From a virus (lineage: Duplodnaviria > Caudoviricetes), in IMG/VR virus record IMGVR_UViG_3300048839_001287, positions 1 to 58,045 of that record: a DNA stretch of 58,045 nt; one strand, 5' to 3'. Below are positions 19,787-40,500 of this stretch, one piece after another. Numbering within the stretch: position 1 is the stretch's first letter; each line of letters opens with the position of its first letter. The translations under genes and the position numbers were made by a program. The notes beneath the pieces are model-generated. The model did no database searches. It saw only the letters and a program-made list of their open reading frames with translations, and was not told the origin of the DNA.

Positions 19787-21468
19787 TGGAAGTAATAACC
19801 TTTTTTGGCGGCACTGCGAATAGAACACAGTGCCGCTACATTAAGGGGAGTTTCTACGAAATTGGAAAAGAAGCCTACATGGTAGATGGCCAATGGCACA
19901 GAGTTAATAACAGCAAAATTGGGTACGACATGATTTCCAAAGAATGGAGATTAATGGAAAGTATGCCCATAAACTACAAAAAAGTTTTGTTGAACATTGA
20001 CCCTGTAACAAATATGCCTTACTATGGCTACAGACCGATTGAAAAAGAAGAGGCTTTTCTGTTCGTTACAGTTTCGCGCACCATTCCGGGGTCGAAAAAT
20101 AACGAAACGGTATCAAAGCACATCGAAGCCTTAATCAATCGTGGCGCCGATTCAGCAGAAGCTGCCCAACAATACCTAGTGTATACGTCGAAAAACAGAA
20201 AAGAAACCTTGCCAAGAGATGAGTGGTTTAAGGCTAACTTTTTACCAAAACTGCAAAAAACTCTTGAAGAGTTGGAAGAGTCTGAATACATGAATTACAG
20301 TCAAATTCTTTGCGAAGAACAGTTGGCCGTTAAACTTGGTCATGTGGAAGACCCGAAAACCGGGATTTTCTATCAAAAAGATCGTTTGACAAATACAGAA
20401 AAGCAAAGAATAAGTAAAATCATGACTTATTCCTTGCAGTACTATGGTCGTGCCTACACAACGGTAGGACACAAAGACGAAGAGCAAACAAGGGAATACA
20501 GCGAAATTTACAGCAGAAAGATTTCAGGAAAACCCGCCGACAAAGTATTACAGAAGTTTATTCCTTACACGTTTGGAATTGAACACGAGACCATTCGTGG
20601 CTTTATACCGGAACCCAGACTTCCCTGGTTAGGTCTTATTCCTTTAAGGGATGGGTCGCTTGAAACTGGAGATGGGCCCGCCGGAATTGAGTATACATCT
20701 GTACCAATGGAGGGGGAATATGGAATTCGTTTATTGCGAAAACAAGCAGAATACCTCAAGAAAAGCTGCGTAGTAAATAACAAATGTGCTTGGCATATCC
20801 ATTTTTCCGGGTTCCCCAGAACTTGGTCTTATGTTAGCAAACTGTATTCTACATGCAAGTTACTCGAAGATGAAATGTATTCCTTGTTCCCAAGATACAA
20901 AAGGCATTCCAGGGAAATCATTGGCTCTCAAAAAGAGTATACGGCTCCTTTGCCCGCTGGATTAGACAGGCCCAGAAACATGTTCAATTATCTTTCTGGA
21001 GGAATGGACGAAACCAGAGCAGAATTCGAGGGGCAAAAATTTGAGGGGGAAATAAAGCACATTAACATAAGACACCATCCCAATGGTGATCAAAAATGGA
21101 ATCGTGCAGCCAGATATCATTGGATAAACTTTGAGCCCATCATTTTTTCTCCGGCGCAAACAATTGAGTTCAGACTTCACACTCCTACGGTTAACTTCCA
21201 AAAGATGGTAGCATGGTTACTGATTTGTTCTGCAATTCTACGTTACGCAGAAATCATGCTTGTAGCTCCATTGACAAAAAAACTGTCGTTGGAAACTGTA
21301 ATCAAAGAAGTAATCGATACCAAATGGCTCCAAGAGTGGGTACTTCGTTACATTGAAACAAGGAAAAGTTGGTTCGTGAATGGAACCGATGAAACAGGAG
21401 AGAAAGAAATTGCCTATGATAAAGTCTTTTCTATCTCGACTGTTGGAGAAAAAATATCTGTTGAATGA
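19786..21468 (+). CDS. Putative amidoligase (Amidoligase_2 / COOH-NH2 ligase fold) with N-terminal extension
   Basis: TFGIEHET, RDGSL, GIEYTS, CAWHIHF, RYHWIN, TIEFRLH. Confidence 0.85.
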   Translation: MEVITFFGGTANRTQCRYIKGSFYEIGKEAYMVDGQWHRVNNSKIGYDMISKEWRLMESMPINYKKVLLNIDPVTNMPYYGYRPIEKEEAFLFVTVSRTIPGSKNNETVSKHIEALINRGADSAEAAQQYLVYTSKNRKETLPRDEWFKANFLPKLQKTLEELEESEYMNYSQILCEEQLAVKLGHVEDPKTGIFYQKDRLTNTEKQRISKIMTYSLQYYGRAYTTVGHKDEEQTREYSEIYSRKISGKPADKVLQKFIPYTFGIEHETIRGFIPEPRLPWLGLIPLRDGSLETGDGPAGIEYTSVPMEGEYGIRLLRKQAEYLKKSCVVNNKCAWHIHFSGFPRTWSYVSKLYSTCKLLEDEMYSLFPRYKRHSREIIGSQKEYTAPLPAGLDRPRNMFNYLSGGMDETRAEFEGQKFEGEIKHINIRHHPNGDQKWNRAARYHWINFEPIIFSPAQTIEFRLHTPTVNFQKMVAWLLICSAILRYAEIMLVAPLTKKLSLETVIKEVIDTKWLQEWVLRYIETRKSWFVNGTDETGEKEIAYDKVFSISTVGEKISVE

Positions 21469-21827
21469 AAAACAACAAGAGCAGGGGAAACACGTGGGAA
21501 AGAACCATCGTGAAGTACCTAAAAGAGTTGGGGTATGAAGGGATCAACACTTGTCGTGCAGAATCTAAACTGCGCGATAATCAAAAGGTTGATATATGTA
21601 GTTTGCCTGGGTGGAATATCCAAGCAAAGACCCTTCATACCCCGGTACATCCGGAAAAGATTTTATCTGTAATGCCGGAGGAAGATGCAGTTAATGTCAT
21701 CTTTTTTAAAAAAACGAAGAAAATGGGAAAAAGATTTATGCCAGAAGGAGAATACGCAATTCTTAATCTTGCAGACTTTTTAGAAATAATGAAAAGTATA
21801 GATGAAAAAACGAACAGCACTCATTGA
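21465..21827 (+). CDS. PD-(D/E)XK Holliday junction resolvase-like nuclease
   Basis: NKSRGNTWERTIVKYL...VDI...IQAK. Confidence 0.8.
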   Translation: MKNNKSRGNTWERTIVKYLKELGYEGINTCRAESKLRDNQKVDICSLPGWNIQAKTLHTPVHPEKILSVMPEEDAVNVIFFKKTKKMGKRFMPEGEYAILNLADFLEIMKSIDEKTNSTH

Positions 21828-22563
21828 TGCAGATGGAATCGCATATAAGATTGCCGCTGCCAATGAAACACTTGACTCATATAACGACATAGAAAATCTG
21901 GTTCATGAATATATGAACTTTTTATTTTCTAATACAGAGGCTACACACGCCGTTTGCTTCATTAAAGGAGCAGGAAATTTTCGAAAAGATATTGCTAAAA
22001 TTAGGCCATATAAAGGAAATAGAAATCCTAAAAGAATAAAATGGTTAGAGGCAGTCTATCATATTCTAGAAAAAGAATATTTAGCTATTGCATCTAATGG
22101 AGCAGAGGCCGATGATTATATTGCTTCTTATGCGAAACAGCTAAAAGATTCTAGTGAAGACTATATTATATGTAGTCACGACAAAGACTTAAAACAAATA
22201 TGTGGTAAACATTTTGATTTAAATGATTTTGATTTTATAGATATAGATGAAAAAGATGCGGCCTATAGATTGTATCTGCAAATCCTATGTGGAGACAGCA
22301 GTGACAATATCCAAGGGATTCCCAAAGTAGGTATAAAAACTGCGGCAAAAATATTAGACGCAGGAGAACAGGCACCGAATGGGTATTTGGTTTCTTGTAT
22401 AATGGCCTATAAAGATTTTTACGGAGAGTCGTGGCCAATGTTATTCGCGGAAAACTATCAATTAGTATATCTACTTAACAACATAGATTTAAGCGAACCA
22501 ATTGAAAACGGGAAATTTATAGACGTAAATGAAAAACTACAAAACATGGAGGGGGCCGGATGA
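21802..22563 (+). CDS. 5'-3' exonuclease / flap endonuclease
   Basis: ALIDADG, FR...YKGNR, EADD, DKDL, GDSSDNIQGIPKVGIKTA (H3TH). Confidence 0.93.
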   Translation: MKKRTALIDADGIAYKIAAANETLDSYNDIENLVHEYMNFLFSNTEATHAVCFIKGAGNFRKDIAKIRPYKGNRNPKRIKWLEAVYHILEKEYLAIASNGAEADDYIASYAKQLKDSSEDYIICSHDKDLKQICGKHFDLNDFDFIDIDEKDAAYRLYLQILCGDSSDNIQGIPKVGIKTAAKILDAGEQAPNGYLVSCIMAYKDFYGESWPMLFAENYQLVYLLNNIDLSEPIENGKFIDVNEKLQNMEGAG

Positions 22564-23956: not shown

Positions 23957-26900
23957 CTATTTATCAAACAATTGAACTCCTGAAGAATAAATTTTATGTG
24001 CTTGAGTTGTGCCGGGTAAAAACTGCGCCGTTTCTCTAAGAATTCTAGAGTCTCCAGAGTACACACCAGATTTAATTTCATCTTCTCCTAACATTAATTT
24101 CCAAGTGGCATCCATTAGTTGTGTTGCATCACTGAATAATGACATGGCTGGAATTGGCCTCTTGATAAGCGTTTCCATCGCCGACGGATTAGAGTAAAAC
24201 AAAATGTCTGTTTGAACTCTAAGTAATTCATTAATCATAATATTCGTAAGGAAACTTCTGTCGTCATCGTCTTCTCCTTCTGTAGCATGTTTCAAAGCGG
24301 CTAAGGCTATTGTTGCAGTTATAAGAAGTAAAGTTTCATTGACGTTGGCAGATAAGTTTGCATAATCTACATCATCAAACTTATACTGTTCACCCATAAA
24401 AACTCCCTGCTGGTCTGCCTTTTTAATTACATGGCCTAACAACATTCTTCTAACTAACTCTCTACCCATCAGCATACTTTGCTTTGACCAATCTAGTCCT
24501 GTTCCATTAGCATAAGCAAATACACTAAAACCACTGCGATAACGCCCTTTTCTTTTATAACCCAAAGAATAATCCTCGTACTCTTTACCAAATCTATTGA
24601 AAAATCCTTCAAACATCCAGGTTCTAAATTGCGCTAACAATCTGCCTATAGAAGTTTTCTTTACCATCAACGGAGATTCTGGGTCATAGTTACCGTGGGT
24701 TTTCTTAATGGCCTGGTCTATCCTTACTTTAAAATCAAGAATAAAGTCTCTAGGCTCTTTTCCAAACTCAGCAGTATTCCATTTCCCATCATTTCCAAAA
24801 GCTTCCCACATTGGCCTTTGTTTACCATTATTATCAGTAATGGTTTCTTTCAACATCATAGCAATCATTACAGGGGCCTGGTTAATATACTCGCTTCGTT
24901 TTTGCATCTGGTAAGGACTAAGAAAACGCAGTCTGTTTATACCTAAAAGGGACTTTGAAGTAGCTTTATACATTTCATCAGAAGCATCCTTTAAAACATC
25001 CATTCTGTCCATAAGATTTCTAATCTTTAAAGCAGTAGGATGATTATATGAATTGAATGAAAAGTTTCTTAAAACACTTCTCATTACCATTGCCATAGCT
25101 TTTTTATATTCTTGTTCTCCAAATAGTCGTCCGTCTCCAGCCTCAATAATATTTGAAACAAGACCAAAACCCATGTTAGCTATACCAGATAAAATGTTCC
25201 ATCCCATTGACTTTAACTGCATCCAACGAATAGCACCATTGACCACACCAGAACCAGTAAGAACCCCACCAAGATATTCTAATTGGCCCTCAAGAATTTT
25301 CTTGTTACTATCATAAACAGACTTAATCATTAAGCCGTTCTTATAGTCTTCTTCGTTTTGAGTAAGAAGAGTTTCGATTTTTTTCTTTTGTGCTAACTCT
25401 TCACTAGTTAACAATTTCTTTTCACTCTTAAGTTCTACGTCTTGTTCGCGTAAACCATAAAACCTACGAAGAGCAAAATCAAGCATGTTTTTATAGTTAT
25501 CTAGGCCATCCTTTACAGCTAACTCTCCAGCAGTATTATGTAATGGTGCACCAGAAGAATTAGTATGCACTTCTTTTCTGGTTTGAAATTGTTGCTCAAG
25601 AAGTTTAACATAGTCTTCTATAGCTGCTTTATGGTGAAAAGAATAAGTAGTAAAAGCATACAGTTTAAGAATCTTACCCAAATCAAACGACTTGTTTTGT
25701 GCCATTTCATGTAAGATGTCTTTTTCCAAGGCTTTCTTTTCCAACACATTAGGAACACGTTTGTTAGTAAGTTGAAACTCAATAACAGCCGTTTTCATTT
25801 TTTGTTCTACCTCTGCTTTATGATTAGACATCATATGAAAACGAATATTTTTTTCGTCTTCTCCAGTAACAGGATCAATATCAGCAGTACTTGTGTCAGA
25901 TAAATCTTCACTACGAAGAATCTCTTTCATTGAATCCCATAATCCAATAGCAGCTAACTTGCCAGAATTATCAGAGCCAAGCTTTTCCACTAAGGTTTTT
26001 TTAATTGTAGGAATAGTATTCAAACGAATGTTTCTTCTTACGTCATGGGGCAAAAGAGCGTTCAATTGGTAAAGAGTTTCTGCCATAAAATCATAGAACT
26101 CAAAAAGATCATTATCCTTTTCTATAATTTCAAAGTTAGGATCATACCATTTAGTTTTTGCTCCTGTGGCACCATATTTTTTAGGTACAGCATAAGTTCT
26201 ATGTTGTCCTTGGATTCTTAATTTATTTCCCTTATGGTCTAAAATAATCTTATTATCTACTACTTTTGCTGCCGCCCAATAAGGAGAGTTGATTTTATCC
26301 CACTGGTCCATTAACTCGTCTTTTTCAGCAATAGTTGTTATCGGGTCACTATAAATACGGTCTTTGGCTAATTCATAATCAAACTCAAATTCCTCTACTT
26401 TCTTTTCCAGTCTTGCGATTAACTTGTCGTATCCCTTTTGTCCAAGAGCTTCTAATAAATCTTTCTTGTGTGTATCAACATCAACAGCAGTAAAAATTTC
26501 ATTGTTATAACGATAAACACCGGACTTTTTAGTTTTAGGAAAAAGCTTGCGAACATCAAACATGATTTCGTTATTTCTTCTCCATCTAAAATAAGCGTCC
26601 CAATGTTTAGGTTTGTTTGTTGATTCCGCTACTCTAAGTAATTTATCTTTTTCATCAAAATAATCTACAGAATAGCGCATCACCATATCTCCAGTCTCTT
26701 TTCCGTTAGAGTCTTTTTGTTTAAAGATAGAGTAAATATCTTTAGAGTTAATAGCCATCAACTTTGGACGAATCTTTTCTACAAGCTCATCGACCTTTTC
26801 ATTAATACTTGCAGAATCCATTCTTGCCTTTGTACTCTGATTTTTAATAGCAATGGCTAAAGACTGAAGCATAGGGTCTTTTGTTTCCGCCAAAGAAATA

Positions 26901-27964
26901 ACTTGCCCCATAATGCTGCCTATATCAGTAATAGCTTTGTAAATATCAGGAGTATTTAAAAGAGTGCCTGTATGTTTTTGTACAAAACCAGTAATAACAT
27001 CTTCCTGGTATTCTCTAAGTAAAGCAGAATAATGATCCATTCTTTGCTTATAATAAGCAAAGCCGTTTACCCAGTTTCCAGAAACACTTTGATAGCCATA
27101 TTTTAATCTATCAGACTGCAACTCAATATCATCAAATAAGATATGAGATTCTCCATCAGATAAATTAAAGTCACCTGCTTTTTGCCAGAATCGCATAATT
27201 CTTTGTAGATACGCAATTGTACCAACATCCATAGTTGGTTGCTTAAAGGCCCCTTCTACTTCTTTTAAATGCTCTTCAGCAAAATTTAACAGCGTTTCAA
27301 GATCTTTTGTTTTAGACAGTGCTTTAAGATTTTGATCTATATTTTCAATCTGATTGTATAGTTTTGCAATCTTAGCATCAATATTCTTTACGCCTACTTT
27401 ATTGTTTGCAGCTTTTGCGTCTTTTTTCTTTTGGAATTCTTGGCTTAATCTTTTATACAGTTCGCTTTTTTGTTTCTTAAAAGTTTCTCTTAAAGCGCCA
27501 AAACGATTCATTTTAGAAGAAGAAACGATAAGATCATCATACTCATATTCTCCGTCTCGATCAAAAGCTCCTTGAATTTTTACTACATTATCTTTAAGAA
27601 CAGGAACTTTATATTTGATCCCAGTAGGAGTTTGTATTTTTATTGGATTACCCAAAACAGGCAAATCAAATATCCTGTTTATCTTTTTAATTGACAATAC
27701 TCCTTGGGTATAAGAATTACTTCCAGATGCTTTTTGATTTACATAATAGTATCCTTTAGCATTATTCTTTCTGATACCTTGTTTTGCACTAACAGCTTCA
27801 TCAAGATAATGTTGCACAGTTCTATTGACGTCGATTCTTCCTTCTTCATTAAAAACAGGAGGAAGGGTAGTTCCGACTACCCCATCAAATTCTCCTCTTT
27901 CAAGTAACTGCTGCATTTCTTCAGCAGTATATTCTTTACCATTGTATGTATATGTACAAGCCAT
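23957..27964 (-). CDS. Giant virion cargo/ejection protein (1335 aa)
   Basis: Follows the virion RNAP gene; helical; HGNY...GRLLAQFRTW motif and a late hydrophobic helix, as in large crAss-like cargo proteins. Confidence 0.75.
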   Translation of the reverse strand: MACTYTYNGKEYTAEEMQQLLERGEFDGVVGTTLPPVFNEEGRIDVNRTVQHYLDEAVSAKQGIRKNNAKGYYYVNQKASGSNSYTQGVLSIKKINRIFDLPVLGNPIKIQTPTGIKYKVPVLKDNVVKIQGAFDRDGEYEYDDLIVSSSKMNRFGALRETFKKQKSELYKRLSQEFQKKKDAKAANNKVGVKNIDAKIAKLYNQIENIDQNLKALSKTKDLETLLNFAEEHLKEVEGAFKQPTMDVGTIAYLQRIMRFWQKAGDFNLSDGESHILFDDIELQSDRLKYGYQSVSGNWVNGFAYYKQRMDHYSALLREYQEDVITGFVQKHTGTLLNTPDIYKAITDIGSIMGQVISLAETKDPMLQSLAIAIKNQSTKARMDSASINEKVDELVEKIRPKLMAINSKDIYSIFKQKDSNGKETGDMVMRYSVDYFDEKDKLLRVAESTNKPKHWDAYFRWRRNNEIMFDVRKLFPKTKKSGVYRYNNEIFTAVDVDTHKKDLLEALGQKGYDKLIARLEKKVEEFEFDYELAKDRIYSDPITTIAEKDELMDQWDKINSPYWAAAKVVDNKIILDHKGNKLRIQGQHRTYAVPKKYGATGAKTKWYDPNFEIIEKDNDLFEFYDFMAETLYQLNALLPHDVRRNIRLNTIPTIKKTLVEKLGSDNSGKLAAIGLWDSMKEILRSEDLSDTSTADIDPVTGEDEKNIRFHMMSNHKAEVEQKMKTAVIEFQLTNKRVPNVLEKKALEKDILHEMAQNKSFDLGKILKLYAFTTYSFHHKAAIEDYVKLLEQQFQTRKEVHTNSSGAPLHNTAGELAVKDGLDNYKNMLDFALRRFYGLREQDVELKSEKKLLTSEELAQKKKIETLLTQNEEDYKNGLMIKSVYDSNKKILEGQLEYLGGVLTGSGVVNGAIRWMQLKSMGWNILSGIANMGFGLVSNIIEAGDGRLFGEQEYKKAMAMVMRSVLRNFSFNSYNHPTALKIRNLMDRMDVLKDASDEMYKATSKSLLGINRLRFLSPYQMQKRSEYINQAPVMIAMMLKETITDNNGKQRPMWEAFGNDGKWNTAEFGKEPRDFILDFKVRIDQAIKKTHGNYDPESPLMVKKTSIGRLLAQFRTWMFEGFFNRFGKEYEDYSLGYKRKGRYRSGFSVFAYANGTGLDWSKQSMLMGRELVRRMLLGHVIKKADQQGVFMGEQYKFDDVDYANLSANVNETLLLITATIALAALKHATEGEDDDDRSFLTNIMINELLRVQTDILFYSNPSAMETLIKRPIPAMSLFSDATQLMDATWKLMLGEDEIKSGVYSGDSRILRETAQFLPGTTQAHKIYSSGVQLFDK

Positions 27965-30900
27965 TAGTTACATTTTTTACTTATAATACCCTCTTTCATT
28001 AAAAGTTCCAGCTCTTTCATCATTGTCATTTGCATGTCAAGTCGTTCTGCGGCCTCTTGTTTTTTAACCATGGCTGTGTCGTATTCTGCTAATAAATCAG
28101 GTCTGTTTTTTGCTAACCACGGACGGGGGTTAGAAGTTACTGGAAAACCCATAACTTGTGGTAATTCATTATGAGGAATAAACACTTCTTCATTTTTAAA
28201 TATTAATCTCAAATGACCCCTTTTGGTTCCAGAAGCAACCATATCATCAGAAACATCAACAACCTGCTCTTTATTTTTATTGCTTAACATAACCAATTGC
28301 GACTTAGTTGTTTGATAAAACTTGCCAGTATTAACCCACTCTTTGCTGAAAACAACATTACCAGGAATAGGACCGGCTTGTATAAACATATCCATCATTT
28401 CCAAACCTGTGTAACCGTTTAAAGATTTAGTTTCAACATTTCGATAAGCAACTTTAAAACTTTTATCTGGATTGTTCTTAGCTGCGGCATATAGCTTTTT
28501 AATGTTGTTAACAATTTGTTGAGGAGGGATTGACTTAAGTCCCTTATTATCCTTTACTCGTAAATCTTTTGTGGGTAACGCATAAGCATTGCCTTGTAAC
28601 CCCTCTCCTTGCCCATACTTAGCACCAAACTTTTCAACAGCAATTTTAGCTGCGCCAGCCCCGTGCCTTCCTTCTGGATTACTACCAAAAACAAAAACTG
28701 TCTTAGCATCAGGAATTATATCTCCTTCATAGTATAAAACATTTGGATCAATATTGGCAGTAACTTGAGGTTGAGAATTAAACAACTCTCCAAAGGTATT
28801 ATAATCATTAACATCCTTTGCTACAGCGTCAACAGCTTCGTTTCCTTGAACACCAGAGTGGCCTCTTACCCAATAATAAGAAACTTTACCCGGCCTCTTC
28901 ATAATCTCATCAACCAACTTGTCAGCAATAATCCTAATGTTATTATCTCCAGCAAAGTTACCTTTCGAGAAAGCTTCATTACCATAGATTTTTTTATCTA
29001 GAAGAGCCTTATCAAGTTTAACATACTGGGAAACTTTTTGATGAATTTCTTCTTGCTGTTTTGGTGTAAGAGTTTTCCAAAAATCTTTATAACCTTTTTC
29101 CGAAAGATGTGTGTTGTCAGTAACTCTCATTATAATTCTGGAAAGAATCCAAAGTTGAACACCTTCTAAGTCTTGGTAGATTTGTACAAACTCGAAAGAA
29201 GGAGTATTCTGAATAGCTACAAGAGAACCATAAAGTTCCATAACACCATTAGAAGGATCGCCTTTTATTTCTTCGCCAAGTTCTTTAGACATCTTTTCTA
29301 AACCGCCCTCAAACTTGTTGTAGTGGCCTGAGATCGAATGTTCTTTATCCCCGTGCTTCAGATATACACCGAAGCCTAATTTGCCCGCCTGCTTAATATC
29401 AGAGCCATCTACGAAGACCTGAAGAGGTTTATCTGGGGAACTAAATCGTGCTTGTGTTTGAATTGGTTGTTTTTGTTCTGGCTGCTTAATGTTTGCTTCG
29501 ATACGACTCTCAATAAGAGTTGTAATATCCTTAACAACATTTGCAGAAACTTCATCAGAGAAAGTGATGCCAATAGCCTTCAACAAGTCACTAATCAATT
29601 CTACAAACTTCTCAAACAATCCTTTGTCATTTAACTTTTCTTGGAAAGCAGGAGAAGTCATTCCTAAAGCAAAAAATTCTCTTAAGTTATGGGCACCATA
29701 AAGTGCACTAGCCTCTTCTCTGGTTAAGTTATCCCCATTCGTTTTTATATAAGCCTTGACATCGGTATCTTGTGATAACCCATATTCATCAAGAACAGCT
29801 TTCCTATATGTTTCTTGAAGTTTACTTAATCGAGCTATAATCGTTTTTTGTTGTGCCGTTAACTGATTTGGATTAATCCTATACTTATGTATGAGGTCGG
29901 TAGTCAAGCCATGGGTTAATTCATGCAGAACAACTTCTTCCAGCATACTTCTATTTTCTGCTTTGGAAGCATTGATTATAATGTTAACCTTATTATTAGT
30001 GCCATAAGTAGTTCTGGCAAGATATGGTGCTGTCGGATCATCAATAACTGAAATAGACCACTCAATACCTGTCTTATCAATAATATCTAAAATATTTTCA
30101 GCATACTCACGATAACCAAGGTTAGTTGTAAGAGACTTAATATTTTCAAGAACATCTTTGATTACAGGTAAAGACCCGTCCCCCAATTCCAGTTCTTCTA
30201 TCAACTGATTATAGTTTGGTTCCGCACTGGGAGTTATAGCTTTAATAACTTTTGCGGGTGCGGGAGCTTTTTGACTATTTCTTACTTTCTTGGCATCTTT
30301 AAGTCTAGTGTCATTATTAACAACAGAAGAAGACTCTGTGTTCCAAGAGTATTCTCTTATAGAGGCCACGTGTTTTTTACCTATAAATCTTGTGCCAAGA
30401 ACGGGGATTCTTTCATATTCATTACCACCAACATAAGCAAACAGATGCCATCCTTGGGGGACATCTGGATCTTTAAAAGAAATAAATTCAGTTAGCCATT
30501 CTCCGCCTTCTCTTTCAACAGTATATTCTTCCAGTTGATCTGGATTTATAGCAATAAAGTCTACCTCTTTTAGTTTAGTAATAGGTTGTTGTTTTCCTTC
30601 TGGAGTAACTAAATTAAAATGTTCAACTTCTCCCCTAGTAATACTACCAGGATTATGCTGTACGAATTGTTTTGTATATTTGCTATACTGATATGGATTT
30701 TCTTTTTTCATTACAACTTCCACATCCTTGCTATTAGCAAATGTAATTTTATTCATCGCTTCAGCAAATCCTATCTTTTGCAGATATTCTACAGGAATAT
30801 ACTTTACATATTGAGAAGCTTCTTGTAAGCCACCAGTCATATAAGCATAAAGAATTAACTCCCTACCCAAGTCCTGGGTAGTCATTGTCTTTCCATTAAA

Positions 30901-33900
30901 TTCGCCAATTGGAATTGGATGTACAAGCAACTCCATGAAGGAAGCATACAGATTTAGTTCATCATAGTTTTCAGCAGTTGCAGCATTGAACGTAACAGTA
31001 CTAGGTAAATCTCCTTTTCCAAGTCTTGGTCTTAATCTATTTAAGAAAGCATTATTCTTGAAGAATTCCTGATCTTTAGATGCCAACAATATAGCCGCCA
31101 AAGAATAATGTTCAAACGTATCCTCTCCGGTTTTTACATCAAATAAAAGCCTGCGCCTTTCTACACTAGCTGATTCAGTACCAAGATTAAGGGCAGCCGC
31201 ATTTGAAAACAGATAGGCTTTCAAGTCTTTCCAAACTTTTTCATAGTAATCTGCCTTTGCTTGTGGCGGAAGATTCATTTTACCAGTAACCTGAAGAATC
31301 TCTTCCATCTGCACTTGAATAGCATCTTGGTGGAATGGGAACAATTGTCTCCACAATCTATTATTAAGCAACAAAGCATTCTTAGTTGCATGACCATTGA
31401 TAGTATTAAATTGAACATTTACATGAGCACCAAATCGAGTATAACGCCCAAGTACAGTATGCCCGTTAACTATAGGAGAAACATCTAAAGAATAAATAGA
31501 CTCTTCTTTAGTCATACTAGAAAATATTGATTTGCCAACACCAGCAGAGTCGGTATTGATAGCAGACTGAATCTTTTTCAACTCTATACCATATGGTTGA
31601 AGGAAAAGAAACTTAGCAAGAAGAGCCGCCTGTTTCTTTTTATAATCAGGATAAGCTTCCCCCTGTTCGATCATTGCCATCATTTCTGCTGACCCAATAT
31701 TATCAGACTGCTCTACTAGTTTATCAATAATCTGTTGCTTTTCTTCTGGACTGGCTTTTAAGAACGCTTGTCCATAGTATTGTCCAAATAATTCATTTCT
31801 CACTCTTATTGCAGCCCCAACTTCATATTCTTTCAAAGAGTTGGTCGCCTTACTTAGTTTGTCTACATACTCAAAAATAATATCTTGGGAAATAAATGGG
31901 GCAACAACAGATTCATCAAAACCAAGTTGATTAAGGATACGAATAACATCATACGTGTAGTTATTCACATTGATCTTATCCATGATCTGTTCCTTCTCAT
32001 TATCCACAGCAGCCGACTGATAAGCAGCAATTACATCAGACTTATAACGTTTAGTAGTACCAAGAACATATTTACCAGATAAATCACCGCTCGATCTAAT
32101 ATTACCAAACACAATTGGCATTGGTGGCAAACTTTCCTCATCAAAAATAAACTGCTCAGTTAAATAAATTTGTTCACCAGAAACAGCATAAGCATGTTGC
32201 ATTACGGAGTTAAGAACGGAGTCAAGTGAAAATACACCGACACCGCCAACTCTACCAGCCATAGCATTGATAAACTTTTGCTTTTGATATGAATCAGAAA
32301 GAGGAGAAAATATTTTATCACTGTGTTTTCTAGCTGCTCTAGCAGAACTAATTTTTGCAGCAAGATCTTTTCCGCCTTTTAAATCACCATAAGCAAGAGG
32401 GGCATGAATTTGTTGCTGAACCACATCCCTTGGATCTGACATTACTTCAAAGTGAATATCAATAATGTCATTCTGAATACTCTTCTTATAATTACTGATT
32501 TGCTTAACAATATCTTTTCGAAGTAATTCGGCTTCAACTTTATCTAAACCAGCTTCAACAGCAGCATTAATATAATCCATCAAGAAATCTCTTGATTCAT
32601 TAATACCCATATTGTATTTAAGAAAATCACTGAACCTATTAATTTTAAATGTCCCCTCTTCCCCATTAAACATGTGAGTATAGAAGTAATCATTTAAATC
32701 AACAACAGAGTTTGCCTTTTCAACTAAACCTTTTATTGGATCAGCAAAAGAAGCCTTCTTAATATAAGGAGATTTTTCTGCCTTTATAGTTTTAATTTCT
32801 TCTATTAATTGTTTTCTTCCTTTTATTGTTTCGGACATTTCTCCAATCTCATCATACAGTTTATTTATTGCATCATAGATTTTCTGAATTTCTCCGGATT
32901 TATTCTTATTGAACTGAATTAATACTTGCTTTAAAGCTTTTGCATATTGAATTTCTTGTTCATCCTTAATCCACGCACCAAGATGTTCGGCACCAGCCTT
33001 TTCATTTAAAGAAGAGGCGTTAATTCTTTTAAGTTTGGCAATATCATTATCCATTAAGTTTCTAGCATAAGCCTTCAACTTAATAAAGTCTACTTTATCT
33101 GGATTATAAAAAGAACCGGTACCAACCACATTACTAAAGAATGCTCGGAAAGATGTGAACATTCTATCGCCAGCCTTGAACCCAAGTTCAGGAACATATA
33201 AGTCTGAATTAATAGATGTTATAGAAAGAATTTTTTCCTTCTTTAATTTACCAAGAGTTGCTTTAAAATAATCTAGCTTATCATAAGCCTGTTTGAGTTT
33301 GCCGTTTTCTTTTGAGAATATTTCCTGATTATCATCAATCAAAGTTCTCAACTGAATATTTAGCAAATCCAACTTATTCTGAGATTGTTCACTTAATGCC
33401 GAGTAATTTGTATGATGCATATACAAGTAAACCTTATCTACGTCAAAGTCAGAACCCATCTGTACAACAAGTTCTTTTGGCGCCACAATCATGTCACCAT
33501 GTGCTTTAGGCAAAAATCCAACTATTTCAAAATAAGCCATAGAGTTATGGCCTTGAGTTGGAATACGGAAACCAAATGTTTTTAAAAGCTCCTTATCAAA
33601 TTTAGTTGTGTCAAGAAACTTCTTACCATTTTTTTCTACGATAAAACTATCAATCTTTAATGCTTTACCATTATTGTCCAGAAATTTAAAGGGCATAAGA
33701 ATTTGCCCAGGTTTAAATTCTCCGTTTTCTACACGCATTGGCTGTAATCCTAACATTGGATCAAAACCTTCTACAAAAGTAATGTCTGGAGAATCTTTCA
33801 TGGATTCCCACTCCTTGAATTTAAAACCTTCTTCAGTTGCAAGTACGAGAGATTTCCCCGGGAAAGTCATCTTTCTCACTCTATTATCTACAATACTATT

Positions 33901-36900
33901 TAATAAGGCTTGTATTCTATCTGAAGAACTAGACGCCCAAAGAGGCATAACAAAAGAACCGTCGTCTTTAATATCTAAAGCATAAATATCATTTAAAGGA
34001 TAGTTTCTTTTTACAGCTTCATCTATAAGTAAGTTTCTCAACTTTCTTACATCTATTGTACCGTTATTATAACCAAGTTCATATTCCAAATCTCTCGCGG
34101 CTAATTCAAAAAGCTTTTGATAGTTTTTATTATACCTATCAAATTTTTCTTTCATTCCCGGAAGATCGAGAATATTGTTGAATAACAACTTCCTTTCTTG
34201 TGTACCAACATTAATTTCTTTCTTGTCTGCATCGTAAGGAATTTCTTGCTGAATTCTTAAACCGGCCCTAGGCAAAGTACGAACAGCCAGGTGCAGTTTT
34301 TCTGAATTATTGGAAAGGTCTGCTATAACTTCAGAATCAAAGCCACCTTCAGGTTTAACAAGTGTAGGCATATTCTTGTTAGAAGGAGCCCCCACTTTTG
34401 CAGCAGTAAGAAAAGCAGCACGATCAATACCATTCTTTTCCATAAGAATACGCAGCTCATCTAATTCTGTTCCTTTCACCATTGAAGGGGAAAGAGCAAA
34501 AGAAGATGATTTAATATACACGCGCCTGTCAATATTATTATCAAGGTCGATAACATTATTTACATAAACCGGCTTTAATGGTTGAAACACCAATGATTTG
34601 AACAACTTATAATCATCTTCTGAGACAGACTTTTTAATAGCCTCATCATAGTAATGATTACCATTTGCAATCTCTTTGTCTATTACATTTTTAATAGTGT
34701 TATACAAAGCAACAGGCATTTTACCTGTATGCCTTAATATATACATGTGTTCAGTTAAAGTAGTAATCTCCTGTGCATCAGTAGAAGCTATTTTACGATA
34801 ATCACCCGCAGCAGCTAACCCAAGTTTTTCAAAGAAAGCAGCAACAGTTGAGGCCACTTTTCTGTCTTTTATAAACAACTGTTTAAAACTATTGTTCTCT
34901 TGATCGTTAAGATCATAACCGGGGGCCATGTCACCAGCAAGACGTTTACCAACGTTTAAGAAAGTATCACCAACCATAGCTATTCTTTCTTCATCAGTAA
35001 GCCTATTTCTAAAAACAGACTGGTCAATTTCTTCTGGTGTATATAAAGACTCGGTATCTTTAGCCAGTTGTTCTCTTCTTCCCTTTAAAACCCCAGATTT
35101 AAAAAACATTGCTGGATCACCAATAACCATTTGATACATATTGGCATTAGCAAGTAAATAGTTAGCCACATAATCTGTTGCCGCATATTTAACTTTATCA
35201 AGTCTGGTTTTAGCTAATGGGCTCATTGTAGAGTTCATATAAGCTAAATCCATAAAAGCAGGAGGAGTTTCTTCATCTATATAACCTATACCCAATTCTT
35301 TCCACTCTTCCATTTTTTCTTCTACCAACTTAGTAACGTGATTCTTAATCACTTCCTTCATGATAGAAACATATTCCGGTTTTTCTAAAAGATCAGATTT
35401 AAGGGTTCCATCTTCGTTAAACAACGCGGAAACATTATTCAACTCAGGAACCATATAGAACATAAACCAACCCTCTTCCATACCAGCGTCATTCACTTTA
35501 CCGCCTTTAGCTTGATAGTAATGTATACGATTAATTTCTGGAAGAATCATTTGCTCATACAGCAGATCAACCATATTCTGATCTATTGTGCCGTCTGGAG
35601 TAATATTAACTTTAGTCTTGATGGCTTCTACAAGCATCATGGTTGTCTTATCAGACATAGTTGGATACATGAAATAGACTTTACCGTTTCCTTTATTTTG
35701 AAAAGCAGTAATCTTAACTACTTCATGTTCAGCGCTATCCGCTTGTTTCATTTCAGGGCCATCAAAACCAAACTTTTGTTTGATTGCCTCCAGACCCATA
35801 TAATGTAAATCGAAAGCATCCATAAATGGGGTTTCTGGCTTTTCAAGGTCTGGGTTGTTTTTCTTTTCTTTTTGCCATTTATCCAAAGCATTGTGATCAG
35901 CGTATAGTTGATCAAGCCAAGAAGAATTCTGACTAAAGCTAATGTTGCTTAAGGCATCTACTATGCTTATATCTGTTTTCAAGTCCCTTACTCTTTTAAC
36001 ATTATATTTGTTAAGAGCATGAGAATAAACAGTTTCATTACCAGTTCTATGTGAATTGGATAAAACGTAAGAGGAATATTTCGCCTGAACTTCTGCTAAT
36101 CTTTTAAAGGCAGTTTCAGCCAATGGGTTGTTTACAGATATAGGCCTGTCTCCACGAACTTTAAAATTCTCATAAAGAAGTCTAAATGCACCGCCTTTAT
36201 TTTTAAATAGGCCAATAAATTTTCGCGGGGGCCACCCAACTATTTCTGCCCAAGCTTTATCGTCAAGAGTAATACCAACTTCTTCTAACCATTTTCTTCC
36301 TTCGGCTCTCATTTTTGGAAGAGAATTGGCATCACGAACAGCAAACCCCTTTTCCGGATTAATCCACTGTTCGTATTGATTCATCAACCTATTAGTAATC
36401 CTTGGATCAAGAATTAAGTCCGCAGGATCATTTGGATCGGGAACAGTAATTTTATTGTTGATAAAGTTATCATACCACCCATCTTCTATTTGTCTTGCTA
36501 TAGCATTTGCATTAGCATCATAAACAGAAAGATCATAACTACCATCTTTGTTCTGACTCCACATAATAAATTTCATGGAGACATAATGCTTAGACATAGC
36601 AACCACAAACTCTGTCTTTACTTCGTCAGAAGCATTGTCAAGTCTGTTGATGACATTCTGTAACCAGGGGTAGGCCTTTCTAAACTTTTTCAGATGTTTC
36701 ACCATCTGATCGTAGTCTGCCCTTTGTCCAGACAAAAGAGAAATAAGAGTATTGTAAACAGTATCAAATGGTACTCTTTCCACCATATCAGCCGTATATG
36801 CTTTCTTTGGTGCAATAGTGTTATTAGGAGTTATATAAGCATCCTCAATAAAATGGAAAAATCTTCTTAATCTACCAGACATTGTAACTTTTCCGTCGAT

Positions 36901-37566
36901 CTTGAAAGTAGCGTTATCTTCATAACTGCGTTTTTCCATTGATGCCGTATCGTCCAACTCTGTTTCAGATTCTTCTACAGTAATAATATTTAAAGCATTA
37001 ATTTTTTGCTTGGCTAGTCCTGTTAATTGATCAAAGTTTTTAAGGATCTTTTTTATTTCAACAGCTTGTGCTGCATCAGTATCTCTTACTTCTGAAAGTT
37101 TTGCACGGAAATAATCTTTTAATTTTCCAAATAACTCTTCTTCAGAATACTTTTTTTGTTTTCCTTCAATAACATTCTTTACTACAGCATCAGCCATAAA
37201 ATCCACAACAACCTGTTGTTTTGCAACACCAAGATCGGGTATAATTAACTGTGCTAAATTAGTATGTTCTAATTCTTTTTGTACCGCGTCTGACATGCTT
37301 GGGAGCATATCATCTGCTTGCATATCCATAAAACTAAGTACAGACTCAATGGAAGGTTCTGAATAAACAGTCAGTCCATCGACCTGTTCTTTTGTCCAAT
37401 CCCCACCAATATAACCCATAAAGGAGGGAGAATAGGATAACGTGTAAGCAGCATTAGCCGCCGACACGTTACCTTGAAAATGGTCTAACAAACCAGCAAA
37501 TAGTTCGCTTTGAACTTCTTGCCCAGCATATCGACCATGCGTAGGAGTAAATACTTTACAATTCAT
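27964..37566 (-). CDS. Virion-packaged two-barrel RNA polymerase polyprotein (3200 aa) with zincin, RNase H and macro-like accessory domains
   Basis: TDAQ, QPLKP, AAKVG, LRIQQ, GFRIPTQGHNSM and catalytic GSDFDVDK (33436-33450); HELTH near 29910; RNase H motifs 28813-29424; FVFGSN..GRHGAGAA near 28690. Confidence 0.92.
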   Translation of the reverse strand: MNCKVFTPTHGRYAGQEVQSELFAGLLDHFQGNVSAANAAYTLSYSPSFMGYIGGDWTKEQVDGLTVYSEPSIESVLSFMDMQADDMLPSMSDAVQKELEHTNLAQLIIPDLGVAKQQVVVDFMADAVVKNVIEGKQKKYSEEELFGKLKDYFRAKLSEVRDTDAAQAVEIKKILKNFDQLTGLAKQKINALNIITVEESETELDDTASMEKRSYEDNATFKIDGKVTMSGRLRRFFHFIEDAYITPNNTIAPKKAYTADMVERVPFDTVYNTLISLLSGQRADYDQMVKHLKKFRKAYPWLQNVINRLDNASDEVKTEFVVAMSKHYVSMKFIMWSQNKDGSYDLSVYDANANAIARQIEDGWYDNFINNKITVPDPNDPADLILDPRITNRLMNQYEQWINPEKGFAVRDANSLPKMRAEGRKWLEEVGITLDDKAWAEIVGWPPRKFIGLFKNKGGAFRLLYENFKVRGDRPISVNNPLAETAFKRLAEVQAKYSSYVLSNSHRTGNETVYSHALNKYNVKRVRDLKTDISIVDALSNISFSQNSSWLDQLYADHNALDKWQKEKKNNPDLEKPETPFMDAFDLHYMGLEAIKQKFGFDGPEMKQADSAEHEVVKITAFQNKGNGKVYFMYPTMSDKTTMMLVEAIKTKVNITPDGTIDQNMVDLLYEQMILPEINRIHYYQAKGGKVNDAGMEEGWFMFYMVPELNNVSALFNEDGTLKSDLLEKPEYVSIMKEVIKNHVTKLVEEKMEEWKELGIGYIDEETPPAFMDLAYMNSTMSPLAKTRLDKVKYAATDYVANYLLANANMYQMVIGDPAMFFKSGVLKGRREQLAKDTESLYTPEEIDQSVFRNRLTDEERIAMVGDTFLNVGKRLAGDMAPGYDLNDQENNSFKQLFIKDRKVASTVAAFFEKLGLAAAGDYRKIASTDAQEITTLTEHMYILRHTGKMPVALYNTIKNVIDKEIANGNHYYDEAIKKSVSEDDYKLFKSLVFQPLKPVYVNNVIDLDNNIDRRVYIKSSSFALSPSMVKGTELDELRILMEKNGIDRAAFLTAAKVGAPSNKNMPTLVKPEGGFDSEVIADLSNNSEKLHLAVRTLPRAGLRIQQEIPYDADKKEINVGTQERKLLFNNILDLPGMKEKFDRYNKNYQKLFELAARDLEYELGYNNGTIDVRKLRNLLIDEAVKRNYPLNDIYALDIKDDGSFVMPLWASSSSDRIQALLNSIVDNRVRKMTFPGKSLVLATEEGFKFKEWESMKDSPDITFVEGFDPMLGLQPMRVENGEFKPGQILMPFKFLDNNGKALKIDSFIVEKNGKKFLDTTKFDKELLKTFGFRIPTQGHNSMAYFEIVGFLPKAHGDMIVAPKELVVQMGSDFDVDKVYLYMHHTNYSALSEQSQNKLDLLNIQLRTLIDDNQEIFSKENGKLKQAYDKLDYFKATLGKLKKEKILSITSINSDLYVPELGFKAGDRMFTSFRAFFSNVVGTGSFYNPDKVDFIKLKAYARNLMDNDIAKLKRINASSLNEKAGAEHLGAWIKDEQEIQYAKALKQVLIQFNKNKSGEIQKIYDAINKLYDEIGEMSETIKGRKQLIEEIKTIKAEKSPYIKKASFADPIKGLVEKANSVVDLNDYFYTHMFNGEEGTFKINRFSDFLKYNMGINESRDFLMDYINAAVEAGLDKVEAELLRKDIVKQISNYKKSIQNDIIDIHFEVMSDPRDVVQQQIHAPLAYGDLKGGKDLAAKISSARAARKHSDKIFSPLSDSYQKQKFINAMAGRVGGVGVFSLDSVLNSVMQHAYAVSGEQIYLTEQFIFDEESLPPMPIVFGNIRSSGDLSGKYVLGTTKRYKSDVIAAYQSAAVDNEKEQIMDKINVNNYTYDVIRILNQLGFDESVVAPFISQDIIFEYVDKLSKATNSLKEYEVGAAIRVRNELFGQYYGQAFLKASPEEKQQIIDKLVEQSDNIGSAEMMAMIEQGEAYPDYKKKQAALLAKFLFLQPYGIELKKIQSAINTDSAGVGKSIFSSMTKEESIYSLDVSPIVNGHTVLGRYTRFGAHVNVQFNTINGHATKNALLLNNRLWRQLFPFHQDAIQVQMEEILQVTGKMNLPPQAKADYYEKVWKDLKAYLFSNAAALNLGTESASVERRRLLFDVKTGEDTFEHYSLAAILLASKDQEFFKNNAFLNRLRPRLGKGDLPSTVTFNAATAENYDELNLYASFMELLVHPIPIGEFNGKTMTTQDLGRELILYAYMTGGLQEASQYVKYIPVEYLQKIGFAEAMNKITFANSKDVEVVMKKENPYQYSKYTKQFVQHNPGSITRGEVEHFNLVTPEGKQQPITKLKEVDFIAINPDQLEEYTVEREGGEWLTEFISFKDPDVPQGWHLFAYVGGNEYERIPVLGTRFIGKKHVASIREYSWNTESSSVVNNDTRLKDAKKVRNSQKAPAPAKVIKAITPSAEPNYNQLIEELELGDGSLPVIKDVLENIKSLTTNLGYREYAENILDIIDKTGIEWSISVIDDPTAPYLARTTYGTNNKVNIIINASKAENRSMLEEVVLHELTHGLTTDLIHKYRINPNQLTAQQKTIIARLSKLQETYRKAVLDEYGLSQDTDVKAYIKTNGDNLTREEASALYGAHNLREFFALGMTSPAFQEKLNDKGLFEKFVELISDLLKAIGITFSDEVSANVVKDITTLIESRIEANIKQPEQKQPIQTQARFSSPDKPLQVFVDGSDIKQAGKLGFGVYLKHGDKEHSISGHYNKFEGGLEKMSKELGEEIKGDPSNGVMELYGSLVAIQNTPSFEFVQIYQDLEGVQLWILSRIIMRVTDNTHLSEKGYKDFWKTLTPKQQEEIHQKVSQYVKLDKALLDKKIYGNEAFSKGNFAGDNNIRIIADKLVDEIMKRPGKVSYYWVRGHSGVQGNEAVDAVAKDVNDYNTFGELFNSQPQVTANIDPNVLYYEGDIIPDAKTVFVFGSNPEGRHGAGAAKIAVEKFGAKYGQGEGLQGNAYALPTKDLRVKDNKGLKSIPPQQIVNNIKKLYAAAKNNPDKSFKVAYRNVETKSLNGYTGLEMMDMFIQAGPIPGNVVFSKEWVNTGKFYQTTKSQLVMLSNKNKEQVVDVSDDMVASGTKRGHLRLIFKNEEVFIPHNELPQVMGFPVTSNPRPWLAKNRPDLLAEYDTAMVKKQEAAERLDMQMTMMKELELLMKEGIISKKCN

Positions 37567-40500
37567 ATTTTACATTTATTATTTACTTTATTCCTTGTTT
37601 GCCCCATAACAATCATATCATCTTCCCAATCAATCATTTGCTCATCAGATGGATTTAATCCTAAATCTCCAAGAATATCACCTGATTTTGTCTGTATTTC
37701 TTCGTCTGGAAAATCTGGGTCAGGATTTTCATTATCCTCATTCATTGCCCACTCTCCATCATGTTCATTTACCCATTTAATGAAAGCGTTTATATCTGCA
37801 TCAACATCAGGATTAATTCCCATTTCATTTGAATATTCGATGTACTGGCCAAAATCTCCAACAGATTTATATCTGAGGGTAGAATAGTATCTATCATCTG
37901 GAAAAATTAACTCTTCTTCTTGTTTCGCCAATCTTATCTCTGCTAATCCCCTTTCTAAAAAGATCTGCCTGGCGGCTTCTCTCTGAACAGCAGTATACTC
38001 ACCAAGACCATCAACAATGTTAGTAATCTCTTTATCAGACATACCAATCATGTTGTTCATTTCTTTAGTAACCTTGGTTCTATTTGCTTTCGTGTCCTTA
38101 ACAAACTCTAAACCTTTGAATGCCTCTTTAATTGTTGGGGGAGCAACATCGGGTTCAACACTTACTTTCTGGGTAGTGGTTGGAGTAGAAGTCTCCTCTT
38201 CCATTACCACCTTATATTCAATAGAAGGTTGATAAACAAAAGTAAAAGTGTTTCCAATTTGTACTGGTCTTAATCTTGTTTGTAATCCCATTTTGATGAA
38301 ATCAACATAGGAGCCGTCCTCATTTAATTTCTTTGTAAAAAGTTTACCTTCATTCGTAGTAATAAGAACGACAGGGGATTTTTTGTTTTCAGTTAATCGA
38401 CTGATAGAAACATTCAATTTCATTGCCTTAATATGATCTATCAAAAGAGGGCGAAGAGTTTTCTTTACTTCCGCAGGAGTTTCTTTTGATATAGAAAACG
38501 TTTTATCTGCACCACCAACAGCAAAATCAACAGAGTTACCACTAAAGTTTACAAATCTATGTGAAGAACTTAGAGACTCTCCAGCAGTCTTTACAAAAGC
38601 ATCTAACGGAGACATAAAGCCCCTTTCTTTAAAATCATCAAAGATTTTGTCTGGAGTAAAATTATATAAGAAATGTCCAAGATAAGCATAAAGGCCGGCT
38701 TCGGTTGTAATATCAATCCCCATAACATCAATAATCTCATCAATATATGCCTGTATATTAGCATCATATTCTCCTTTATGAGTTGCAATAAAGATTGCAT
38801 TTACCAGAGCCTCTGCCGTTTCGTTATCTATATTTCCAGGCCTTAATGTAAAACCATTCCAACCCCCTTTAGATGGCACAAACAAATAAGGAATACCAGG
38901 ATAAAGTTTCTCTTCATTATTGATTTTTTTAACATCAGTAACATTGTGTCCAACAATATTACTTTCTTTCATAATACCAATCTTTAACGAATCATTATTT
39001 TCAGAAGGGACTAATTCCTCTAGAGTTTGAAAATCTTCTTCTATTTTAAATACGCCACCATATTTATCTGTAATAACGATTTTCTTAGCTCTGCCTGCTA
39101 AAATATTTCTTCTAATATCCATTAACTTTTGAGCGTCTTCCTGCATACCAGCGGCGTCGTTAGCAACACGAAGATTGTTAATAAACTCAATATTATGAAG
39201 ATAAGCAATCACTTTACCATTGTGCTTTACAGCAATAGGAACCATTGCAGTAACAACATCGTTTGCATTGTCAAACCCAAAATGTTTTGCATAACGGTCT
39301 TTGTTGTTTTTAATTTCTCCCCAAGTAGTTGTTTCATTCACTCCACCAGGAAGATAAGTTGGCACGTTATTATCATCAACAACCTCTAATTCAAACTCTG
39401 CTCCAGGATATATAATACTATTATCGAGAATAGTTTCATAGTCATCTATAAATTCATCTGTATCTACTCTGAAAATCTTACCGCCTTCTACACCAGGAAC
39501 CACATCTGCATATACTCTATGTAAGTAAGCAAGAAAATTGTGGGCTGTAAAATGTCTGGCATAATCAGCTTCATAAGGATACTGTGTAAGTTTAGGACTA
39601 TCTTGTAATCCTTTTTCAGCAGCCTCGTCGTAATATTCTTCACCAGCCAAAAGCTTTTCCTCTGTTAGCATAGATTCAGGAATAGCAGCATCATATACTG
39701 TATCTACATTTTCAAGTAATTGCGCAATCTCTTCATCAGATAAATAAATATCTTCAAACTTAATAGCTGATACTTGAGCGGCTACTTCTTGGTCTATTTG
39801 AAAAGTTGGAGCATAAAAAGATTTGATATAAGGAAAAATCTTTTCCATTACTTTTTTGTCTACAGTTTTAGAGATTTCTCTCATTACTGCATAGAAAGCT
39901 CCTGGGCTATTAAAATCGTAATCAGGATTATCTTCTAAGATAAGCTCTGCTGTCTTTTTAAACAGTTCTGTAGAAGCTTGCATAACTTGTAGCTTCTTGG
40001 CAGAACTCATGACAGCAGCCATATCATCTCCTTCCTCATTAATAAGGTTAAAGATTTCCATAGCAGATGAGCGAATACCGGCTTGTTGAGCACTTAGATC
40101 ATTACCCAAAGAAACAACAGTTCCTTTTTGCATCAATACCCATTCTCCATCTTGATTTACATATTGAGCAGGGGAAACAACTTTAAACTTATCACCGTTT
40201 GTGAGAGGATCTTTTATGTCAAAAGCCTGTCCCAACGTATTAAATTCTTCTGTATAAGTATAACCATCGACAGCATTATCAGAAGGATAAACGTACATGA
40301 GATTTCCTTCACGAGTTCCAGTATAAGGCATTTCATTACCAGGAATTGTTTCTTGAGTTGTAATAGAACCATCTGGATTAACGTAGGCAAAAGAAGTCTT
40401 AATCTCTGGTTCAGGAGAAACTTCTTTTTCCTGCTCCAACATCGCATCAATATCTTCATTTTTTGCCTGATTTGTTACAACAGGAGCTTCTGTTTTAGGT

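Follow-up and report, generated by a model that had tools for sequence, protein, structure and literature searches.

The virion RNA polymerase gp66 of Cellulophaga phage phi14:2, a homologue of the protein considered here, is reported to be packaged, to be delivered with the DNA and to transcribe the early genes; it is also reported that the enzyme transcribes single-stranded or denatured DNA in vitro far better than duplex DNA and that crAss-like polymerases carry Ile or Val at the fourth position of the DFDxD motif (bioRxiv 10.1101/2020.03.07.982082). Polyvalent proteins are likewise giant chains delivered with phage DNA, and virion polymerases fused to metallopeptidase and variable effector domains are found among them (Iyer et al. 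2017, PMC5512222). Here we describe a 3200-residue homologue of gp66 that contains a ribonuclease H (RNase H) domain in its C-terminal part. It is encoded on the minus strand of IMG/VR virus record IMGVR_UViG_3300048839_001287 (Duplodnaviria; Caudoviricetes). The window that was analysed is this entire linear record of 58,045 bases, estimated to be 58% complete.

An RNase H domain within a crAss-like polymerase

RNase H domains cut the RNA strand of RNA:DNA hybrids. An earlier note, made from the letters of the window alone, had claimed that the polymerase holds all four RNase HI motifs in order, and they are indeed seen when 28813-29424(-) is translated: the product is an open peptide of 204 residues in which VFVDGS, SNGVMELYG, IYQDLEG and finally WVRGHSGVQGNEAVDAVAK follow one another. 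The Pfam family RNase_H (PF00075) is the sole Pfam family detected in the 3200-residue protein, with 43.7 bits against a curated gathering cut-off of 25.8 (E 4e-11; profile positions 3-138 of 141), and the PHROGs family phrog_531, 'Rnase H', is matched with E 3.7e-10. Two homologous giant proteins are labelled 'ribonuclease HI' by automatic annotation. The rnhA equivalog NF001236 of NCBIfam gave 37.4 bits, below its cut-off of 160. Judged by its sequence, this RNase H belongs to a divergent phage clade and is not an rnhA orthologue.

The active site was examined in an alignment of 13 sequences, comprising residues 2705-2930, seven segments of other giant proteins and five short stand-alone relatives, these being 27-67% identical to residues 2705-2930. 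Five positions, D2720, E2777, D2799, H2903 and D2913, are invariant in all 13, as are the Asn preceding the catalytic Glu and the G-H-S and G-N blocks. A profile of the 13 relatives matches the chains of E. coli RNase HI (E 4e-13), and its alignment sets four blocks of the family (D-G, N-x-x-M-E, D-x-x-G-V and G-H-S-x-x-G-N-E-x-x-D) on the E. coli blocks that contain the catalytic residues. We take the E. coli counterparts of the five positions to be D10, E48, D70, H124 and D134. The structure prediction that had been proposed as a check returned the alpha/beta fold of RNase H: AlphaFold2, run on the alignment, gave a model with a mean predicted local distance difference test score (pLDDT) of 92.6, a predicted template modelling score (pTM) of 0.90 and no residue below pLDDT 50, and Foldseek placed E. 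coli RNase HI at the top of its hits for this model (E 6e-8, probability 1.00, target TM-score up to 0.75). The domain is an intact type-1 RNase H.

The earlier note had also pointed to a long helical segment between the third and fourth motifs, at the place of the basic protrusion, and both parts of this description hold. Relative to the short stand-alone relatives the domain has an insert of 55 residues, in which the model places three helices (segment residues 119-156, between helix B and helix D; pLDDT of the block 82-97). In the profile alignment the insert opens at E. coli RNase HI residues about 80-95, which presumably are the basic protrusion. The protrusion, or handle, is itself missing here and the helical insert stands in its place; basic protrusions such as those of the E. 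coli and human enzymes are not universal among type-1 RNases H. Lys is abundant in the insert and aromatic residues are conserved; the net charge, +2 in this protein, ranges from +1 to +4 across the five carrier rows read. A second insert, of about 17 residues and forming one helix between strand 3 and helix A according to the model and the profile alignment, had not been mentioned in the note.

The open reading frame (ORF) that contains this stretch is uninterrupted, with no stop across 3200 codons, and matches phi14:2 gp66 (6vr4_A in the PDB). Its G-S-D-F-D-V-D-K block aligns with the catalytic DFDID block of 6vr4_A, the motif having Val at the fourth position, as expected of a crAss-like polymerase; the Asp residues of the motif (D73, D75 and D77 in core-segment numbering) are invariant in eight aligned cores. 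The alignments to gp66 end near residue 1906 of the 3200-residue protein. Homologues of the polymerase core are present in 135 GenBank phage records, from Bacteroides, Flavobacterium, Cellulophaga and uncultured crAss-like phages, with a best identity of 33%. By homology, therefore, the carrier is a crAss-like virion RNA polymerase, and the in-frame fusion that had been proposed stands, as the RNase H lies within the same ORF as the core that matches 6VR4. Packaging and ejection of the protein by this phage would follow by analogy with gp66.

Homologous giant proteins are referred to below by P numbers and IMG/VR loci by L numbers. In the RNase H, identity to the closest orthologues, P0004 and P0005, is 65-67%, which compares with 66-67% in the polymerase core and 49-62% in the other segments (N-terminal, middle, C-terminal polymerase and zincin). 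The more distant P0014 gives 39% in the RNase H and 32-49% in the other segments. The GC content is even along the whole gene. Since the RNase H is conserved to the level of the core and the GC profile is flat, the sequence comparison argues for a domain maintained under purifying selection and against a recent insertion or an assembly chimera. With an intact active site under selection, we infer that the enzyme is active. An artefact or a separate gene was also considered and rejected, given the lack of a stop in 3200 codons, the repetition of the domain order in P0004, P0005 and P0014, and the even GC.

Distribution of the RNase H and its carriers

The 204-residue peptide was searched against 1.84 billion cluster representatives at E 0.001 or better. 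Only 36 representatives matched, 14 of which are longer than 1000 residues, and all seven matches that run end to end and include the insert are to proteins of 1094-5679 residues. When the core segment of the 3200-residue protein was used as the query, a polymerase core was found in P0004, P0005, P0014, P0017, P0022, P0008, P0023 and P0007. A core profile built from the 3200-residue protein and these eight added P0025, P0026 and P0038, with P0010 marginal (E 2e-4), and detected no polymerase core in P0006, P0009, P0011, P0012, P0013 or P0032.

The RNase H is carried by 11 or 12 polymerase-bearing giant proteins, at differing positions. It is near the C-terminus in the 3200-residue protein and in P0004, P0005, P0014, P0023, P0025, P0026 and P0038; downstream of the polymerase motif and about 250 residues before the end in P0007; N-terminal in P0008; and, in P0017 and P0022, upstream of the DxDxD motif with a polymerase piece on either side. 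In P0009 it is found with LPD23, PIF1/AAA_30 helicase and metallopeptidase domains and no detectable polymerase core; a match of P0009 to a 2OG-Fe(II) oxygenase is weak (20.9 bits, below the cut-off of 31.2). A Pfam scan of the carriers other than P0010 and P0011 (>5000 residues) found as neighbours ART-PolyVal in P0022 (and just under the cut-off in P0013), NADAR in P0032 and P0038, DUF4326 in P0032 and cpYpsA, a SLOG family, in P0007.

We also observed an insertion hot spot inside the polymerase core, between the piece that ends near residue 1323 and the piece that bears the DxDxD motif. The extra residues at this place number about 120 in P0004 and P0005 and 1260-1480 in P0017 and P0022, where they include MORN repeats, ART-PolyVal and the RNase H.

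A pattern scan of IMG/VR with the RNase H alignment gave 20 loci. In L001-L005 a polymerase core precedes the RNase H by 340-1400 residues in the same frame, and the remaining 15 loci lie in open frames of 130-480 residues. In L001, a contig of 98,884 bases, two Trp positions that are conserved in the RNase H family are TGA. Under translation table 4, L001:3182-13660 becomes one ORF of 3492 residues with 12 recoded codons, a DFDVD motif, a SLOG-like stretch and an insert-bearing RNase H, and this phage seems to read TGA as Trp.

How often crAss-like polymerases carry an RNase H, a survey that the earlier note had suggested, was addressed from the polymerase side as well. At least 545 stretches of IMG/VR matched in a scan with the polymerase core, and the best 80 loci were examined over 10 kilobases on each side of the DxDxD motif where the contig allowed. 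None of these 80 nearest loci has an RNase H at E 0.01 or better, with a profile that does detect stand-alone phage RNases H. The zincin segment was found in 22 and the A1S_2505 segment, described below, in 6 of the same 80 polymerase ORFs, at varying positions. Among GenBank phages (50,697 records), neither megablast of 27964-32000 nor tblastn of the 204-residue peptide gave a match.

The distribution argues for a cargo module of giant proteins that is rare, recurs and can move, and against a built-in part of the transcription machinery; the RNase H appears optional because it is rare, is shuffled between positions and carriers and lies beside modules of ADP-ribose type. Calling the domain an RNase H is easy and not unique. 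What is new here is a clade of insert-bearing RNases H confined to giant phage proteins, together with its behaviour as polymerase cargo.

Companion domains and gene surroundings

The region added to the polymerase spans residues ~2480-3200 and contains, in order, a zincin-like domain with an HExxH motif, the RNase H, a macrodomain-like A1S_2505 domain and a conserved tail (Table 1). The HELTH motif of the first domain is conserved in orthologues, and its segment has only weak matches in Pfam and NCBIfam (SprT-like, E 0.049; M90 and M36, E 0.15; TIGR04338, E 0.098). It is a putative metallopeptidase, which may process the chain, and it is the single hint of the cleavage that the word 'polyprotein' in the earlier note implies. 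The domain that follows the RNase H belongs to the NCBIfam family A1S_2505, 'phage non-structural protein', and a fold search places its predicted structure among macrodomain-like folds, near TARG1, alphavirus nsP3 and DarG. By sequence, the same segment matched no Pfam family at E up to 5, and no macro family; nothing convincing was found among PDB sequences (best E 0.075), and the Atlas returned only weak leads (best 0.87; DUF7831 0.82). In the literature, as far as the accessible texts go, no paper addressing the function of A1S_2505 was apparent. On its predicted fold, the domain is a candidate ADP-ribose-removing cargo module. The 29-residue tail is kept in P0004 and P0005, although the domain preceding it differs there.

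Table 1. Features of the polymerase gene and one gene of the replication module, with coordinates in the window
Feature	Residues	Coordinates	Strand	Basis
Virion RNA polymerase ORF with C-terminal add-ons (3200 residues)		27964..37566	-	PDB 6vr4_A, E 1.8e-22; phrog_16227 virion structural protein, E 8e-104
Polymerase core	979-1384	33415..34632	-	aligned on gp66 residues 1009-1386; alignment domain 4, 74.8 bits
Catalytic DFDVD motif	1373-1377	33436..33450	-	aligned on DFDID of 6VR4
Zincin-like domain (HELTH, an HExxH motif, at residues 2548-2552, 29911-29925)		29467..30129	-	motif; weak family matches
RNase H domain as modelled	2705-2930	28777..29454	-	Pfam, PHROGs, alignment, model, fold search
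RNase H, Pfam envelope	2714-2918	28813-29427	-	PF00075
D2720, first catalytic Asp	2720	29407..29409	-	invariant in 13/13; on the D of the E. coli DG block; codon verified
E2777, catalytic Glu	2777	29236..29238	-	invariant in 13/13; M-E-L block aligned; codon verified
D2799, second catalytic Asp	2799	29170..29172	-	invariant in 13/13; on the D of the E. coli T-D-S block; codon verified
H2903, conserved His of the G-H-S-G loop	2903	28858..28860	-	invariant in 13/13; E. coli G-H-A-G block; codon verified
D2913, last catalytic Asp	2913	28828..28830	-	invariant in 13/13; E. coli N-E-R-C-D block; codon verified
Family-specific helical insert (55 residues)	2817-2871	28954..29118	-	missing from short relatives; model
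A1S_2505-family domain, macrodomain-like predicted fold	2957-3077	28336..28698	-	NCBIfam, fold search
Conserved 29-residue C-terminal tail with C3199		27967..28053	-	52-55% identical to the tails of P0004 and P0005
Flap-type 5'-3' exonuclease		21802-22563		replication module

In the database this protein is called as P0003, with 3151 residues and a start 49 codons downstream of the first ATG (the codons at 37420-37566(-)). The longer form of 3200 residues opens with MNCK.F, and because this N-terminus is common to P0004, P0005 and P0014, the upstream ATG is probably the true start. The gene lies in a co-directional run of large genes with overlapping ends, whose products have 1335, 3200, 1742, 709, 545 and 1324 residues. 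The other half of the window is a plus-strand replication module that encodes a family A DNA polymerase, helicases, a primase, a Sak4-like protein and a flap-type 5'-3' exonuclease. Within the window, PF00075 is matched by the RNase H of the 3200-residue protein only.

In the giant proteins of the virion block (27964-37566(-), 23957-27964(-), 37563-42791(-) and 42778-46534(-)), Cys is confined to the ends of the chains. The polymerase has just two, C3 and C3199, and its RNase H domain has none; among the neighbours, the 1335-residue protein has one (C3), the 1742-residue protein has one (C1740, third from the end) and those of 709 and 545 residues have none. Elsewhere in the window there are 2-9 Cys in the five replication-side proteins that were checked and up to 14 in other minus-strand genes. 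The end-only pattern recurs in P0004, P0005, P0013, P0014, P0025 and P0038, and P0009, P0017 and P0022 have Cys near both ends and one to four internal ones. Such extreme depletion of cysteine suggests that the chain bears the marks of an ejected protein and, like the PHROGs label 'virion structural protein' of phrog_16227, is an indirect sign of its presence in the virion. Cys at the ends only might serve the end-to-end linkage or anchoring of ejected proteins.

A cluster of amidoligase type was noted in the replication-side module at 13413-21468(+), where PHROGs names a glutamine amidotransferase, a COOH-NH2 ligase, a second amidotransferase-like protein and an amidoligase. It may have a role in the modification of small molecules, peptides or DNA.

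Possible roles and comparison with known systems

On balance, we regard the domain as a catalytically competent RNase H carried as cargo by the virion polymerase and most likely serving conflict with the host. By analogy with phi14:2 gp66, the whole chain would be made late, packed in the capsid and ejected with the DNA into the next host. As relatives package and eject such a chain, the RNase H would enter together with the DNA and would work ahead of phage gene expression. Once refolded, it would attack RNA:DNA hybrids during the first minutes of infection by cleaving their RNA strand, its targets being either RNA paired with the entering phage DNA or the hybrids of defence systems, such as guide RNA on target DNA and the products of reverse transcriptases. 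Both roles put forward in the earlier note, the clearing of R-loops and an attack on hybrid-dependent defences, are possible. Host conflict is placed somewhat ahead of R-loop clearing, each falling short of even odds, because most relatives of the polymerase do without the module and because it is mobile and is found beside modules of conflict type.

Several points weigh against this reading. The record is a fragment, which limits the view of further RNase H genes and of the host. Packaging and ejection are predicted from homology to phi14:2 gp66, and the producing cell would also contain the protein at a late stage, so that its RNase H might already act there ahead of packaging. The preference of the phi14:2 polymerase for single-stranded template in vitro favours R-loop clearing. 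The polymerase core is present in 9 or 10 of the 14 giant carriers (nine clearly and one marginally), which could mean a specific link to transcription and not generic cargo. Nothing ties the RNase H to any particular defence system, and PADLOC gave no match for the RNase H, zincin or C-terminal segments. Finally, the RNase H is far from bacterial rnhA, and because an insert replaces the substrate-binding protrusion its substrate preference may differ from that of classical RNase HI.

The main rival, which we consider possible but doubtful, is a housekeeping function, in which the RNase H clears R-loops or long hybrids made by the virion polymerase on the entering genome and so frees the template for later transcription and replication. 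The template preference of the phi14:2 enzyme would make persistent hybrids likely, and the association of RNase H with the core among the giant carriers is matched in IMG/VR, where all five giant-frame loci of the 20 RNase H loci have a polymerase core. Moreover, the Rhc RNase H of jumbo phage Goslar is reported to support transcription, with a pattern that suggests the resolution of R-loops (bioRxiv 10.64898/2026.10.01.755736). However, none of the 80 closest polymerase loci (the best 80 of at least 545) has an RNase H, and no GenBank phage matches it against 135 records with the polymerase, so the polymerase appears to work without RNase H in most lineages. The position of the RNase H relative to the polymerase active site is also variable, carriers with no detectable polymerase core exist, and bacteria of the host phylum commonly own an RNase HI (the control genome was Bacteroides thetaiotaomicron).

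A more specific form of the host-conflict reading is unlikely as a whole, somewhat more so than R-loop clearing. According to it, the RNase H would be a virion-delivered counter-defence nuclease that destroys the RNA of hybrid-based immunity before phage gene expression, alongside a macrodomain-like module that strips ADP-ribose, with the insert recognising protein-bound hybrids. Candidate targets would be guide RNAs on the entering DNA (CRISPR, Argonaute), the multicopy single-stranded DNA (msDNA) of retrons and the templates of defence reverse transcriptases.

A role in replication seems improbable. RNase H cuts transcripts to prime ColE1-type origins, and the domain could in the same way process or make primers, such as by cleaving transcripts of the polymerase at an origin so that they prime DNA synthesis; with the fusion, a single chain would both synthesise and trim primers. 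In several groups of jumbo phages, primer removal is presumed to be the task of RNase H1 (PMC7824862). However, the gene lies in the virion and transcription block, outside a replication module that is itself equipped with a primase, a family A polymerase and a flap-type 5'-3' exonuclease, and the RNase H is rare among relatives with the same replication genes. A replicative primer-removal enzyme was judged unlikely for the same reason, the flap-type exonuclease being already a candidate for that task.

Least probable of all is a relic, a structural or binding module without nuclease activity, or an enzyme acting late in the producing cell only: the basic protrusion is replaced and the protein would be in the cytoplasm late in infection, but none of the five catalytic positions varies among the 13 aligned sequences, whose identity is only 27-67%, conservation reaches that of the polymerase core and confidence is high along the whole model, where pLDDT never falls below 50.

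Virion-carried crAss-like polymerases are known, as are giant injected polyvalent proteins with enzymes for the first minutes of infection, and RNase H is unmentioned among such enzymes in the literature searched. The terms 'RNaseH' and 'ribonuclease H' are missing from the main text of Iyer et al. 2017 (PMC5512222), and no RNase H term occurs in the main text and four supplementary files of Yutin et al. 2021 on crAss-like phages; among papers that name both 'crAss-like' and 'RNase H', as far as their accessible parts go, none is about the polymerase. Literature on phage RNase H in connection with injected anti-defence factors led to the Rhc preprint and to what appears to be a description of a jumbo phage isolate. 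If the domain is active on arrival, cleavage of hybrid RNA would be added to the pre-made tools of phages. This would offer a handle on how polymerases that prefer single strands escape trapping in hybrids, and on direct attack by phages against RNA-guided or reverse-transcriptase immunity. In addition, the clade supplies compact, Cys-free RNase H domains that would need to refold after ejection, and the defined slot in the polymerase is useful for studying the exchange of cargo modules. We regard the interest of the system as moderate, and as greater if a counter-defence role is true.

Compared with phi14:2 gp66, the protein shares a homologous core, a DFDxD motif with Val or Ile in fourth place and the form of one giant chain encoded among other giant genes. 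It differs in that gp66 has 2,180 residues and the matches stop short of the add-ons at residues ~2480-3200. The resemblance to polyvalent proteins lies in a very large chain, presumably delivered with the DNA, that combines a polymerase, a putative HExxH peptidase-like domain with weak family matches and swappable effector domains; unrelated polymerase, RNase H and macro-like A1S_2505 domains occur here within one ORF, and relatives of the protein carry ART-PolyVal and LPD23. However, the N4-like polymerases among polyvalent proteins are of the single-subunit type, whereas the polymerase here is of the two-barrel crAss type.

With respect to other type-1 RNases H, namely E. coli RNase HI, the catalytic domain of human RNase H1 and the RNase H domain of HIV-1 reverse transcriptase, the domain is set apart by its three-helix insert of ~55 residues and its extra helix of ~17 residues, by its lack of Cys and by its embedding at residue 2714 of a 3200-residue protein, the insert form being found only in proteins of at least 1094 residues (7 of 7). 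The RNase H-clamp protein Rhc of Chimalliviridae is similar in that a phage RNase H is fused to part of a nucleic-acid machine, and it is reported to support replication and, separately, transcription; unlike the present protein, it is described as a DNA polymerase subunit that acts inside the phage nucleus, and it is likened here by description and not by sequence (bioRxiv 10.64898/2026.10.01.755736). Retroviral reverse transcriptases also end in an RNase H, with homology at the level of the RNase H fold only. In those enzymes the RNase H breaks down the RNA template from which the polymerase makes DNA, whereas the polymerase here makes RNA from DNA and its RNase H would destroy the product if this stayed paired.

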